Shown one piece after another: positions 2,508 through 50,331 of a stretch of 64,000 bases of DNA (position 1 is its first letter; each line of letters starts with the position of its first letter). The notes beneath the pieces are model-generated. The model searched no databases and was not told the DNA's origin. It saw only the letters and a program-made list of their open reading frames with translations. Location: IMG/VR virus record IMGVR_UViG_3300032167_000022, one strand, 5' to 3'. The DNA is from a virus. The translations under genes and the position numbers were made by a program.

Positions 2508-2624
2508 ATTATTTTCCTTTTGAATAAAAATAGTAAATATATATATTAATATTTATATATTATTTAATTAATTTATATATTAATATTATATTTACTATTC
2601 TATATTTTATTTTATTTTATATAT

Positions 2625-2657
2625 ATATATTATATCATATTTTTTTTATATTGTCAA
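2625..2657 (-). promoter_or_regulatory. Sigma70 consensus promoter (TTGACA, 17 nt, TATAAT) firing leftward into rnhA and the topoisomerase genes
   Basis: Minus strand reads TTGACAATATAAAAAAAATATGATATAAT. This is one copy of a repeated element of about 40 bp. Confidence 0.7.
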
Positions 2658-2665
2658 GTAAATCT

Positions 2666-2950
2666 TACAAAGTACTTAATGTAATATCTTCTAATTTATT
2701 TGCTGTAATAGCGACACCATCGCAATTATTATATGGATAAGATGTTAAAGATGTCTATAAAAATTGATTATCATTATGAATAATAGATATATTATTAATG
2801 CATCCATTACGAATAGCCATTAAATTAATTGAAGGAAATAAATCTTCAAGACGTTTCATAATATCATTAGCTGTTTCTCTATCTATATTCTAATCAAAAG
2901 AAATTAATAAAGTATCGCCATCAGAAATATTTAAATGATTAATATTCATT
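2666..2950 (-). CDS. Hypothetical small protein with two in-frame TAG codons
   Basis: AAGGAG ribosome-binding site followed by ATG, giving MNINHLNISDGDTLLISFD(TAG)NIDRETANDIMKRLEDLFPSINLMAIRNG... and ending at TAA. The reading frame is continuous only if TAG is read as sense. Confidence 0.4.
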
Positions 2951-3039
2951 TTATTTTCTCCTTTTTTATTTTTATTATATCATATATTTTAATAAAAGTC
3001 AATAAAAATAAAAATGGGGCTAAAGATTTTAATCTTTAG

Positions 3040-3452
3040 CCCTTATATTAAATTCCATAATTAATATCTGGAATGTAATCATTTAAATTTTCTTCTGTAA
3101 CAATATTAGAATTTATATTCTACTATTCTTCATTTACTCCCCAATCAATTTGTGGAACAGAATTACCATATATAGCATTTACTTCTGCCATAACAGATTC
3201 AAACTTTATACCATCTTTAGAATTTTCTACTGTACTTTTTTTATAATAGAATACTTGACTTACTCCATAAGCGGTCCACGGAAAACTTATCATTGCCGCT
3301 AACCAAGGTAAAGAACCCATATAACCGCAAAAAATACAATAAAATGCTAATCCTATAAAAGACAAGGTCAATATCCATAATAATGCTGACTCTTGGATTA
3401 ATAGCACTTTAGAAAATTCTTTTTTTTGATTTTTATTATTTTTCTTGCCCAT
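3040..3452 (-). CDS. Small membrane protein (possible holin), extended past a TAG
   Basis: ORF 3123..3452 has two hydrophobic segments and ends at a TAG (plus-strand cta). The frame stays open for about 25 more codons before a TAA. Confidence 0.35.
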
Positions 3453-4373
3453 GTAATCTATAAATTAAAGTAGCGGCTTCTTCTCTTGTTAAAAATTTAC
3501 GATACATACCATTACCTGTCATATCACCTTTAATAATACCATTTTCCTCACACCATTTTCGCGCTTCTTCAGACCAACTATTTGGTGGCTATTTAGCTAA
3601 ATTAACAAGATAATTATTCATCATTTTATTAAACTATTCTTGTGTTAAACTATTGGATTGATTTGGTAAAGTGACTGGTGTAGAGGGAATTGGGTCTGGT
3701 TGCGGTTGCTAAATTTCAGGTTGTACTGAATTTAAAATAGATTGTACATCATTTTTAACTGTTTCCATATTTTTTCCATATTTTGGAAACCAGTGCATTA
3801 CATCTCCATGATTATTGCCCATTCCAAGAGCATGGGCATCTTTATGACAAAGAATTGTAGGAATTTTTTTCCCATTAACTTCAACATAACCATGCGGGTC
3901 TATATTAAATGTTTTGCATAAATAAGCTGTTAATTCACAAGCTTCTTTATATACTGTATCAAAATATTCTTTATTTGTTAAATCATCTTCACAAATTTCA
4001 AATTGAATCCATCCATTATTACATGAACCATTTTCACCACTGCCGCAACCCCATGGACGATAAGTCCAAGGTAAAGTCTATAAAGTGGTAACACTTCCAT
4101 CTGCTAATTTACCAATCCAAGCATTTAAACCAGACTAAATATCAATTTGATTATAACTATTATTATATTTATTAGTTCCAATCATTGTCATTAATTCTTC
4201 ATATTTAGGGTCAGTTTTACTTGGCTAAACATATCTTTTTAAAGTAGGATTATTTGCGCCAGTACTATGCCATAATACACCTAAAACAGTCATAGGTTTT
4301 GTCCCTTTATAGCAGGTACTATCTGTTAAAATACATTGTGTTGGGGTTTGATTTAAATATTTCATACCTATTT
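3436..4373 (-). CDS. Putative endolysin: N-acetylmuramoyl-L-alanine amidase (Amidase_2/PGRP-like) with C-terminal SLH-like cell-wall binding motif, about 6 in-frame TAG
   Basis: The reverse complement translates to MKYLNQTPTQCIL..GVLWHSTGANNP..ILCHKDAHALGMGNNHGDVMHWF, which fits the zinc-amidase His/Cys ligand pattern. The C-terminus reads WSEEARKWCEENGIIKGDMTGNGMYRKFLTREEAATLIYRL, which fits the SLH consensus. The ORF track shows no ORF here because TAG breaks the frame about every 50 codons. Confidence 0.5.
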
Positions 4374-4384
4374 CCTCCTTCTCT

Positions 4385-47724: not shown

Positions 47725-47816
47725 TGGCGGAGGATGAGGGATTTGAACCCCCGCACGGCTATTAACCGTCTCTTAGTTTTCAGGACTAATCTCTTCAGCC
47801 TCTTGAGTAATCCTCC
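47725..47816 (-). tRNA. tRNA-Ser(UGA), type II
   Basis: GGAGGAT acceptor, anticodon arm TTAGT-CCTGAAA-ACTAA, long variable arm, G73, CCA encoded. Confidence 0.8.
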
Positions 47817-47841
47817 ACATAAGAGAGGATTAAATATCCTC

Positions 47842-48195
47842 TCACTTCAAAGACTTAATAATATTTTTAAGGTCTGCTTCTGCTTCATCAAGAGCATAAG
47901 CAGAATCCATTTCATAAACCTGACAATTCTGAAGATACAACTTCTGCTTATTAACTTCCTTTTCTGCGGCAAAACGCTTAATAGTAGCTCGCTTATAACG
48001 CTTCTGCGCAACTTTAACTTCACATCTTGCTGCCGCAAGCTTCTTACCGATTTCTTCATCATAAGTATCACCGGGAGCGCAAGTAGCCTTTCCCTTTACT
48101 ACCTTACCACCGTAAGTTGAAAGAGCAATAATCTGAATATTACCATTTTTAAGGGTTCTCTTTACAAACTTATACTTTTCAATCGGATATGCCAT
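47842..48195 (-). CDS. Hypothetical protein
   Basis: 117-aa ORF. Confidence 0.35.
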   Translation of the reverse strand: MAYPIEKYKFVKRTLKNGNIQIIALSTYGGKVVKGKATCAPGDTYDEEIGKKLAAARCEVKVAQKRYKRATIKRFAAEKEVNKQKLYLQNCQVYEMDSAYALDEAEADLKNIIKSLK

Positions 48196-48284
48196 AATTT
48201 TTTACTCCTTTAAATCTTTTTAATTTTTTTTTATTTTGTATATATATTATATCATATTTTTTTATAAATTTCAAATAAAATATA

Positions 48285-48359
48285 TGGAGCTGGTGAGGGG
48301 ATTTGAACCCCTAGCCTACTGATTACAAGTCAGTTGCGCTGCCGTTGCGCCACACCAGC
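48285..48359 (-). tRNA. tRNA-Thr(UGU)
   Basis: GCTGGTG acceptor, anticodon loop CTTGTAA, CCA encoded. Confidence 0.75.
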
Positions 48360-48585
48360 ATATAACCCACCAAATCAACGCATCTCATTGGCGGTTAAGG
48401 TCCACACAAGATTTCTTAACTCTTTAAGGGATATATAAAAATCTTTTTTTATTTTCTATATATATTATATCATATTTTTTTATAAAAATCAAATTTTTTC
48501 TTTTTAACTGAATAAAAATTTCATTTCTTTTTTTATTTTCTATATATATTATATCATATTTTTTTAAAAATGTCAATTAAAGAAC

Positions 48586-49965
48586 TTTAATCCAAATACG
48601 TCCATCAACTTTAATTGTACCATCTTTCCAATATTCATAAGTGGGAATTTCAGATACAGTACCAATTATTCTATCAGGATATTCCTAAACTTCAGTTCTT
48701 GACATTAATGAAATTGTCCCATTAGGTCCAGCACATACTGGGTCACCGGGCGCAAATTCTGATATATCTTCATAGGGATATGCTAATACACGACCACAAA
48801 CCGCTATAGGAGTGCCGCAAATCTCAGTCTATCCAATAGCAAAACCAAAAGTATCAGACACTATATTTGCTCCTGGTTCTAAATGTTTAGATGATAATTT
48901 TAAATCACCATTGCCAGTTTCTACTACTACATGCCCGGCTTGAATTTTTTCTTTTGTTTCACGATATTCGGCATAATCATTCCAAGCTGCGCCATATAAT
49001 ACATCATTCTACATAAATACGCTATCTTCTTCATATATATTCTAAGAACCAGTTCCAGTAGCACCTAGAACATAAAGTTTAGAAGATGTATCATCATTAA
49101 TATTTACTTTAGTTGCGGTAGTAGCAGTCGCAGCATTCTTAGTAATATCAACATCTAAACTGGTACTACAAACTACTGGAACACCAGAAGCATTAAAATA
49201 TACTGGTAAGGTTGCAGAACCTATCTAGCCACTAACTACTAAAGCATTAGCTTTTTGAGCAATTCCTGTAGTAGATAACTTTCCATTTAATTGAGTTTGA
49301 ATTGTAGAAGTAGTATCAATTCCTGCTAAAGTATTAATTTGATCTTTAGAAACTGTTACTCCATCTAATATATTTAATTCAGAAGGAGAAGCATTAATTC
49401 CTAAAGAAGTTAGTGTAGGAACAGGAACTGTAATTGTTTTATTTGATGCCGATGTAATGCGTCCTTTAGCATCAACAGTTATATATGGAATATTAAATGA
49501 ACTAACTGTTTCTGTTTTACTATGTCCATACGAATTAGCTGTTACACCACTATTAGCCAATGTCGTAGTGATACTCCATCCTGCTTGAGAACTTTTTGTA
49601 CCAGTTATATCTCCTTCTAAAGTTATAGTTTGCGCAGAAGCAAATTTTGTAGCTGTTGCCGCATTACCTGTTGTACTATTACTAATGGTATCACATTCTA
49701 CTGGAACTCCATTAAGAAAATAAACTGGATGAGAAATATCACCTATATTAATTCCTTGTTTTATTGTAGTATTATCTAATTGTACTTTATCTTCTCCTAA
49801 ATAATTAGCATAATTAGAATTTAACTATTTGCGTTCACCAGATTCTCCAGATGATACATCTACATAGATTTCATTAGAATCTCGTGTAACATACATATAT
49901 CCTTCTGTTTTTTCTACAGTGTCTAAAGATTTTTTATTACCTTTTAAAATTTTAAATAGAGCCAC
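48586..49965 (-). CDS. Tail-fibre-like protein on the minus strand with at least 6 in-frame TAG codons
   Basis: AGGAGG ribosome-binding site then GTG near 49965, giving (M)ALFKILKGNKKSLDTVEKTEGYMYVTRDSNEIYVDV... The frame is continuous through ORF 49225..49560 (Thr/Ser/Asn-rich fibre-like) and is broken only by TAG codons. Confidence 0.4.
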
Positions 49966-50331
49966 TCTGTGTACCCTCCTTAAATATATAAAAATTTTTG
50001 AGTAAAATTTTTTACTCTATATATTTAATAAAAGAGCATACAGGCATTTTATCGTATCTTACCCTATTGCCGCAAAATTTCTAAATCACTTTTTATTTTT
50101 GGGTTTTCGGCGCTTTTGATTGTCACCGCCCGGAGCAGAAAAAAATAAAAAATGTGTAATAAAAATTTTTTCTACTTTTCTTACTCTGTAGTCGCTGTTA
50201 CTTCAAATAAGTCTCGCACTACACTAAACCCGCCTACCATCAGAAAAGCCTTTTATTACACATTTCCCAATTTATTTACTTGTATTTTCTTGAAACTATT
50301 AAGATTTTTTTTAATAATAGCTCAGAATTTT

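Follow-up and report, generated by a model that had tools for sequence, protein, structure and literature searches.

Several groups of phages read the amber codon TAG as glutamine (genetic code 15), which in crAss-like phages has been proven by proteomics (Peters et al., PMC9523058). The crAss-like, Lak, Garnet, Amethyst and Topaz phages have a low GC content, encode a tRNA(CUA), still terminate at TAA and TGA and have TAG concentrated in structural and lysis genes, with an amidase ranking among those most heavily recoded and with variable use elsewhere (Borges et al., 10.1101/2021.08.26.457843; PMC9523058). The same set of characters is found in the stretch of DNA analysed here, 64,000 nucleotides of the IMG/VR virus record IMGVR_UViG_3300032167_000022 (hereafter the window; 32% GC), whose in-frame TAG codons and putative decoder, an amber-suppressor tRNA(CUA) encoded at 47207-47301, are the subject of this text. 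We consider it highly probable that the window belongs to a large, AT-rich and tRNA-rich code-15 phage in which UAG would be translated as glutamine by the phage's own tRNA(CUA), charged by a host enzyme; the skew of TAG toward late genes may serve as a timing lock.

Code 15 in phages is already well established, and an automated pipeline has already called this sequence with TAG as a sense codon; only the family of long-armed, 1:72-mismatched tRNA(CUA) described below goes beyond confirmation. The lineage is nevertheless different from those of the known code-15 phages: a megablast of 19 kb against GenBank phages (INPHARED) gave no match, and the relatives of the window are unclassified IMG/VR contigs of 113-197 kb. 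In gene content it resembles large phages of the Bacillota type, with, for example, a DUF2828/TROVE protein 42% identical to those of Bacillus phages. The long variable arm of the suppressor tRNA is another difference from the known groups. A further system of this kind is phAss-1 (proposed Phassvirus), a gut phage known from its uncultivated 136-kb genome, in which 41 ORFs (open reading frames) contain TAG, with Clostridia (Eubacteriales) as predicted host; it has its own tRNA-Sup(CTA), reads TAG as glutamine and encodes no synthetase (Babkin et al. 2023, PMC10607447). Compared by description, phAss-1 differs from the window in having three suppressor tRNA genes, which tRNAscan-SE assigns to the glutamine type and for which no unusual architecture is reported.

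TAG as a sense codon read as glutamine

The analysis confirms what the initial annotation of the window had proposed: TAG is a sense codon, and the stops are TAA and TGA. Once stops are reduced to these two, many short standard-code ORFs merge into long ones: ORFs of at least 150 amino acids cover 59% under the standard code and 72% with TAG as sense, against 62% in a control with TGA as sense, which brought no ORF gain above chance in the window. A simple codon-usage caller run with TAG as sense called about 70 genes, which take up 79% of the window. The 70 called genes end in TAA (56) or TGA (13), one extending past the window end, and no tRNA(UCA) was found in the window. There are 66 in-frame TAGs in total, 64 of them within 19 credible, homology-supported genes on both strands. 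An ORF with two TAGs at 53249-53554, which overlaps a tRNA gene, was regarded as spurious.

Frames of 426-843 codons without TAA or TGA have a chance of 1e-12 to 1e-23 at this base composition, and Pfam matches (Amidase_2, T6SS_VgrG3-like_C, Band_7, S-AdoMet_synt_N and Glycos_transf_2) span TAG positions. Alignments with homologues, a check that the initial annotation had suggested, also cross the TAGs: those of the endolysin run over the full length, with about 60% identity across 99% of it, and relatives of the PhoH protein align full length at 49-65% identity, with E, N, S or A at the TAG position. In the holin-like membrane protein, whose gene follows that of the endolysin, a conserved C-terminal D(I/L)(N/D)YGI motif follows the tandem TAG TAG in three relatives, so that read-through is needed to reach it.

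Positions 33184-54701 recur at 100% identity in six independent public contigs, which come from different samples; TAGs within this third of the window are thus not errors. Those outside it rest on homology and on a 97%-identical strain (L023, covering 3025-10244), which keeps 13 of the 15 TAGs that it covers, the one in PhoH included, and has sense codons in place of the other two. L023 has CAG for the TAG of the flotillin gene and GAA at codon 110 of the holin-like gene. Among records of identical sequence, JGI standard-code calls split the endolysin, fibre, flotillin, PhoH and MetK-like genes at their TAGs, whereas ENA records called with TAG as sense yield full-length products, which bears out the earlier statement that standard-code annotation is fragmented. 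Such annotation of the phage and its relatives is broken, and analyses of host range, lysis and auxiliary genes need code 15.

Which residue does TAG encode? The initial annotation had named neither the residue nor the tRNA(CUA). The window's endolysin, a U32-like protein and one fibre were each aligned with 120 database homologues, and log-odds were summed with weights over 22 usable TAG columns in these three families, with homologues of more than 70% identity excluded. Glutamine scored +41.8 bits, lysine -13.7, serine -34.0, leucine -42.2 and tyrosine -48.7. Endolysin TAG codons 40, 138, 281 and 330 fall on columns that are conserved among the nearer homologues and hold glutamine in 28 of 29, 29 of 29, 117 of 120 and 118 of 120 homologues, respectively. 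Some of these database residues are themselves derived from TAG, the closest homologue (P0001) and two more (P0004 and P0016) having no standard-code translation, and the test was therefore redone at the DNA level. Endolysin site 330 is CAG in 68, CAA in 10 and TAG in two of 80 IMG/VR loci, and the solved structure of the PlyL amidase (PDB 1yb0) has glutamine at this position. Opposite the TAGs of the window, two recoded relatives of about 60% identity have CAA seven times, CAG twice, AAA six times and TAG twice, while their own TAGs face CAA in the window (four cases). The DNA-level comparison rules out an artefact from database proteins translated with code 15, and the codon exchanges, together with CAG for the flotillin TAG in L023, indicate that UAG is translated as glutamine here. 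Two other comparisons were not informative on the residue. The 22 loci related through the major vault protein (MVP)-like gene share few TAG-bearing genes with the window, and the counterparts of TAG in them are scattered (D, I, M, P and others), so that the residue had to be identified through the endolysin family and more closely related recoded phages. The TAG of the MetK-like gene lies where the PDB alignments are variable.

At two places TAG stands close to the end of a gene. Relatives of the NADAR protein end at about residues 147-152 and its Pfam profile at residue 145, that is, before the TAG at codon 154, and the NAD synthase gene has its TAG two codons before TGA. Stop and sense are not distinguishable at these two positions, and the proteins could equally end there. 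From codon counts, about 3.4 TAGs would be expected by chance within the last 13 codons of genes if TAG is sense, and two are seen; the two cases are thus no evidence of TAG as a stop.

Skew of TAG toward late genes

With genes divided into late and other classes by annotation, not by expression data, the 13 lysis and structural genes carry 33 TAGs (6.4 per 1000 codons, 23% of their glutamine codons), the three genes of an AT-rich island 24 (27.6 per 1000 codons, 58%) and the other 53 genes seven single TAGs (0.62 per 1000 codons, 2.3%). TAG density is ten-fold higher in late than in other genes (Fisher p=5e-12). This pattern is the usual one, and the endolysin belongs to the late, lytic genes; the contrast with the late-gene pattern of other phages that had been drawn initially therefore fails. 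The accompanying description of the recoding as genome-wide holds only weakly, through occasional TAGs in non-structural genes, and the range given for it (2600-49970), although all coordinates named within it are correct, leaves out 24 further TAGs at 59734-62352. In the survey of Borges et al. (10.1101/2021.08.26.457843), TAG read as glutamine is likewise concentrated in structural and lysis genes, with an amidase significantly recoded, and TAG use in replication genes is variable.

Composition alone fails to explain the skew, since three AT-rich, CAG-poor genes lack TAG. The counts of CAA/CAG/TAG are 11/0/0 in gyrB, 17/2/0 in gyrA and 10/0/0 in the NAD ligase gene (the latter two just outside the window), that is, no TAG in 40 glutamine codons, whereas the endolysin, with equal AT content, has 11 in 23. 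Codon counts agree with the initial annotation that gyrB, RNase H and NAPRTase are free of TAG. Glutamine codon habits are split within the window: the GC-richer genes for flotillin, NAPRTase, the SPFH protein at 20048, the MVP-like protein, TROVE and the product at 47842 use almost only CAG (in one example 20 CAG to 1 CAA), and most of the remaining genes are nearly CAA-only. The TAG-rich genes fall in the CAA class and have no CAG.

What could such a skew be for? In the model proposed by Borges et al. (10.1101/2021.08.26.457843), recoding holds back late proteins while suppressor tRNA builds up, and we adopt this model, with moderate confidence, as the most likely function here. Host release factor 1 would truncate TAG-rich proteins until the suppressor tRNA suffices, and lysis and virion proteins would consequently appear late. 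High TAG density marks the lysis cassette, the fibres, the AT-rich accessory island and a GIY-YIG endonuclease gene just outside the window; genes of replication and nucleotide metabolism have few TAGs or none. The window adds a large-phage lineage, probably infecting Bacillota, to those with TAG enriched in lysis and virion genes, which supports recoding as a late-gene lock. Two observations weigh against this model. Single TAGs are present in the PhoH, MetK-like, YorF and AAA_24 genes, and any early proteins among these would need suppression; and terminator-like hairpins follow the flotillin gene (7284-7258), the PhoH gene (5110-5090) and the holin-like gene (3042-3017), setting PhoH and flotillin apart from the lysis cassette. 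The idea that these two genes are co-transcribed with the cassette, and hence late, was dropped, as the hairpins argue against one operon.

Alternatively, TAG could encode glutamine with an uneven spread that has no regulatory role, CAG having drifted to TAG in AT-rich genes that are weakly constrained or recently acquired; the initial description as genome-wide would then be right and the late-gene skew a by-product. Such drift would fit the absence of CAG from TAG-rich genes of 17-33% GC (CAA/CAG/TAG 12/0/11 in the endolysin, 9/0/6 in the fibre gene at 48577 and 17/0/24 in the island), the single TAGs in the four genes just named as well as in RNase H and PhoH of one relative, and the TAG/CAG polymorphism between strains, the TAG of the flotillin gene being recent and polymorphic, given CAG in the 97%-identical strain. 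We regard it as unlikely, however, as gyrB, gyrA and NAD ligase are equally AT-rich and CAG-poor and have zero TAG, the GC-richer fibre genes at 35826-40137 (38-40% GC) carry TAG too, and the lysis and structural bias arose independently in several phage lineages (Borges et al., 10.1101/2021.08.26.457843).

The GIY-YIG gene mentioned above is homing-endonuclease-like, has six in-frame TAGs and lies about 5-6 kb left of the window (L132:17328-18278), among the TAG-free replication genes gyrA and NAD ligase. In code-4 Agate phages, a homing endonuclease is preferentially recoded for TGA (Borges et al., 10.1101/2021.08.26.457843).

A long-armed suppressor tRNA

The window encodes a tRNA with anticodon CUA, which ARAGORN labels "Pyl", its name for every CUA tRNA. 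The cloverleaf is canonical (7/5) in all but three features: an A1·C72 mismatch, followed by G2-C71 and C3-G70; G73 as the discriminator (G10 is also present); and the variable arm, about 27 nt according to ARAGORN and a 23-nt insertion relative to the Rfam model, which forms a hairpin. A long variable arm is otherwise confined to class II tRNAs, those for serine, leucine and tyrosine. The gene belongs to a minus-strand array of 23 tRNA genes at 46.2-58.6 kb and does not encode CCA, which 21 of the 22 others do. The second tRNA without CCA is a copy of tRNA-Ile(GAU) at 55591-55663; the array also includes a tRNA-Ser with the anticodon ACU (A34), unusual for bacteria and phages (55045-55133, minus).

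Pattern searches found four homologues with a long arm, in large phage contigs of 42-188 kb (L025, L038, L039 and L040), which have the T arm and acceptor stem of the window tRNA. Position 1:72 is mismatched in all five members (A·C or U·C, with U1·C72 in L038) and all have G73. The D and anticodon stems show compensatory changes. The arms of the homologues (17-22 nt) differ in sequence and mostly fold to hairpins as single sequences; RNAalifold failed to align the variable arms of the family, which differ in length and sequence. Another phage, from the clade defined by the MVP-like gene (L016), has a tRNA(CUA) of normal length, again with a mismatch (C1·U72), followed by G2-C71 and G3-C70, and with G73. 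In the 188-kb contig L025, the suppressor tRNA adjoins a transfer-messenger RNA with the tag AKPYRLAA (L025:2404-2752).

How would such a tRNA come to carry glutamine? Glutaminyl-tRNA synthetase (GlnRS) must open the 1:72 pair. Amber-suppressor derivatives of tRNA-Tyr (su+3) altered at position 1, 72 or 73 were reportedly glutamine acceptors despite their long arm (1970s literature), and these mutants, with the opening of 1:72 by GlnRS, make glutamine charging of the long-armed tRNA(CUA) plausible. E. coli supE, a tRNA-Gln with the anticodon CUA, is likewise an amber suppressor that inserts glutamine. The tRNA of the window resembles supE and the su+3 mischarging mutants in the CUA anticodon with U35 and in a weakened or broken 1:72 pair that, with G73, would direct charging by GlnRS; it is unlike these laboratory mutants of a host tRNA in that the combination is natural, phage-encoded and conserved in at least five phage contigs. 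The glutamine identity set of bacteria comprises G73, U1-A72, G2-C71, G3-C70, G10 and U35 (Giegé and Eriani 2023, PMC9976931). The window tRNA has the glutamine determinants G73, G2-C71, G10, U35 and A37, conserved in the five members, and its acceptor end parallels that of the phage's own tRNA-Gln(UUG) (U1-A72, G2-C71, C3-G70 and G73). An unpaired 1:72 may substitute for a weak first pair. We tentatively suggest that the glutamine decoder of this lineage is a natural tRNA of class II architecture, which would owe its identity to G73 and to a position 1:72 that is always unpaired.

The phage would thus supply the decoder, and a host enzyme would charge it with glutamine, either GlnRS or a non-discriminating glutamyl-tRNA synthetase with an amidotransferase; the hallmarks of glutamine identity at its acceptor end are G73, G2-C71 and a first pair unable to form. 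The Jade phages carry a code-change module of suppressor tRNA, aminoacyl-tRNA synthetase and release factor. Unlike these, the window gave no Pfam or PHROG match to a release factor or synthetase among the about 45 larger ORFs scanned, small ORFs that flank the tRNA (e.g. 47414-47704) being outside the scan. The long arm might block recognition by a host enzyme or nuclease, give orthogonality to some synthetases or tune activity.

Several points count against the assignment of the tRNA to glutamine. It lacks the determinants U1-A72, G3-C70 and U38 and, necessarily, G36 (it has A36 and A38), and the variable region of the family is 17-27 nt, not the 4-5 nt of class I as in tRNA-Gln; we know of no bacterial tRNA-Gln with a long arm of the class II type. 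Determinants of serine are matched in about the same number, namely G73, C72, G2-C71, a large variable region and G30-C40. Taken alone, the tRNA is ambiguous and serine would be a fair guess, but the codon-level evidence says glutamine. Furthermore, a second, canonical glutamine suppressor could lie outside the 64 kb examined. The origin of the tRNA gives no further hint: its nearest neighbours among 121 distinct phage tRNAs are those for threonine, aspartate and leucine, with no serine, tyrosine or glutamine signal and no detectable descent from tRNA-Tyr, and a comparison with the window's own tRNAs is equally flat.

Could TAG then be read as serine, or as another class II amino acid, by a serine-type suppressor? 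The long structured arm, G73, C72, G2-C71 and G30-C40 are bacterial serine determinants, seryl-tRNA synthetase ignores the anticodon, and three TAG columns (U32-like 171, fibre 224 and fibre 296) have serine more often than any other residue. The residue comparison makes this very improbable: serine scores negatively where glutamine scores positively, no TAG lies on a conserved serine column, and at conserved sites TAG is replaced by CAA or CAG and in no case by a codon for serine, as at endolysin site 330, where 78 of 80 loci have CAG or CAA. The tRNA itself argues in the same direction, as it has a class-I-like D arm (4-bp stem, 7-8-nt loop), U11-A24 and C4-G69 in place of C11-G24 and R4-Y69, and no paired G1-C72, the mismatch being present in five of five members.

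Two other readings have next to no standing. Pyrrolysine is suggested by the ARAGORN label and by lysine as second best in the log-odds, at -13.7 bits against +41.8 for glutamine; the variable loop of tRNA-Pyl is 3 nt and its D loop is short, in contrast to the very long arm here, and no gene resembling pylS or pylBCD was matched in the scan of the larger ORFs (Pfam and PHROGs). The standard code, with TAGs as real stops in genes that are split, pseudogenised or misassembled, as the separate fragments of the JGI annotation would have it, is already refuted by the domains, full-length homologues and long frames that cross the TAGs, their conservation in the 97% relative and in the six assemblies identical over 33184-54701, the holin-like motif beyond TAG TAG and the encoded tRNA(CUA).

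A long-armed, 1:72-mismatched phage tRNA(CUA) was not found described in literature searches. Allo-tRNAs, which carry serine or leucine identity, offer a partial parallel. They are non-canonical tRNAs from metagenomes with an 8/4 or 9/3 geometry of acceptor and T stems (Mukai et al. 2017, PMC5389517), and CUA variants with a long variable arm have served as a chassis for engineering (PMC7590224). As described there, they differ from the window tRNA, which is canonical 7/5 and reads a glutamine codon. If the proposal holds, the window tRNA would be the first natural long-armed tRNA to insert glutamine. It would be nature's equivalent of the su+3 mischarging mutants of tRNA-Tyr and would offer genetic-code engineering a ready-made orthogonal scaffold; the identity of the charging enzyme would test how far glutamine identity fits a class II scaffold.

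Recoded genes and their neighbourhood

The features discussed are listed in Table 1. The single TAGs of the PhoH, flotillin, MVP-like and MetK-like genes lie where they had first been placed (for MetK, "near 45469"), and the tail fibres on both strands have one to six TAGs each as described (1, 1, 3, 3, 4 and 6), with the gene at 38440-40137 ending in tandem TGA TAA. The endolysin count alone was off, with 11 TAGs in place of "about 6".

Table 1. Positions of the tRNA(CUA) and of genes with TAG in the window.
Feature	Position	Strand	In-frame TAG	Remarks
Small ORF, 94 aa	2665..2949	-	2	Adjoins lysis genes; ENA code-15 call also 94 aa
Holin-like membrane protein	3048..3452	-	Tandem TAG TAG, codons 110-111	Just downstream of endolysin
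Endolysin	3436..5067	-	11	VgrG3-like lysozyme domain, Amidase_2; 12 CAA, 0 CAG
PIN-PhoH fusion	5112..6392	-	1, codon 168 (5889-5891)	Pfam; TAG in linker between PIN and PhoH domains
Flotillin/SPFH protein	7290..8753	-	1, codon 157 (8283-8285)	TAG within Band_7 domain
NADAR and NAD synthase genes	11919..13239	-	NADAR codon 154/165; NAD synthase, two codons before TGA	
Tail-fibre-like protein	29014..30642	-	3	
MVP-like protein, 820 aa	30765..33227	-	Codon 5 (33213-33215)	Pfam MVP_shoulder, Vault_3
Tail-fibre/structural gene	35826..38357	+	4	ENA code-15 product 843 aa
Tail-fibre/structural gene	38440..40137	+	1	ENA code-15 product 565 aa
Tail-fibre/structural gene	40223..42475	+	3	ENA code-15 product 750 aa
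Tail-fibre/structural gene	42540..43121	+	1	ENA code-15 product 193 aa
Short MetK-like protein	44826..45629	-	1, codon 54 (45468-45470)	TAG inside S-AdoMet_synt_N match
Amber-suppressor tRNA, anticodon CUA	47207..47301	-		ARAGORN; Rfam tRNA model 53.7 bits, E=3.7e-10
Tail-fibre paralogue	48577..49896	-	6	9 CAA, 0 CAG
AT-rich island, three genes	59734..62352	-	7, 7 and 10	U32/PrtC-like protein, family-2 glycosyltransferase and unknown protein, respectively

An SLH-like C-terminus of the endolysin was judged by eye, with no Pfam hit in the endolysin protein. The hairpin 3' of the PhoH gene (5090-5110, minus) consists of GGAGGAATTTTATATTCCTCC followed by a T run, and it overlaps MEEFYIPPFLFLKKG, annotated as the first 15 endolysin residues in the 97% relative L023. 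The start codon equivalent to the L023 endolysin start is missing in the window, and the endolysin start differs between the two calls.

The MVP-like gene has a GAGG Shine-Dalgarno sequence 8 nt upstream of its ATG and no alternative start ahead of the conserved N-terminus; alignment with its relatives, from 22 large IMG/VR phage contigs (53-67% identity), starts at about codon 7. The domains of this protein match the shoulder and repeats of the eukaryotic major vault protein, and proteins of the SPFH/flotillin family are also encoded at 7290-8753 and 20048-21031 (minus).

The island has a GC content of 17-19%, compared with 32% in the window. Two of its three genes were rejected by the codon-usage caller, for which the remainder of the window had served as training set.

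The window also holds an RNA-repair-type set of genes beside the tRNA array: a Thg1-like tRNA-His guanylyltransferase, an RNA ligase, an AAA_33 kinase with metallophosphatases and the TROVE/Ro-like DUF2828 protein. Set and array together occupy 8794-9934, 18688-19551, 21525-22931, 43184-44701 and 46231-58609. Finally, a cluster of NAD and ADP-ribose genes on the minus strand (11919-18675) comprises NADAR, NAD synthase, NAPRTase, a Macro domain protein, DUF5662, an NMNAT-like cytidylyltransferase and a nicotinamidase-like isochorismatase. Together they appear to make up a full Preiss-Handler route of NAD+ salvage, possibly a counter to NAD-depleting defence systems of the host.

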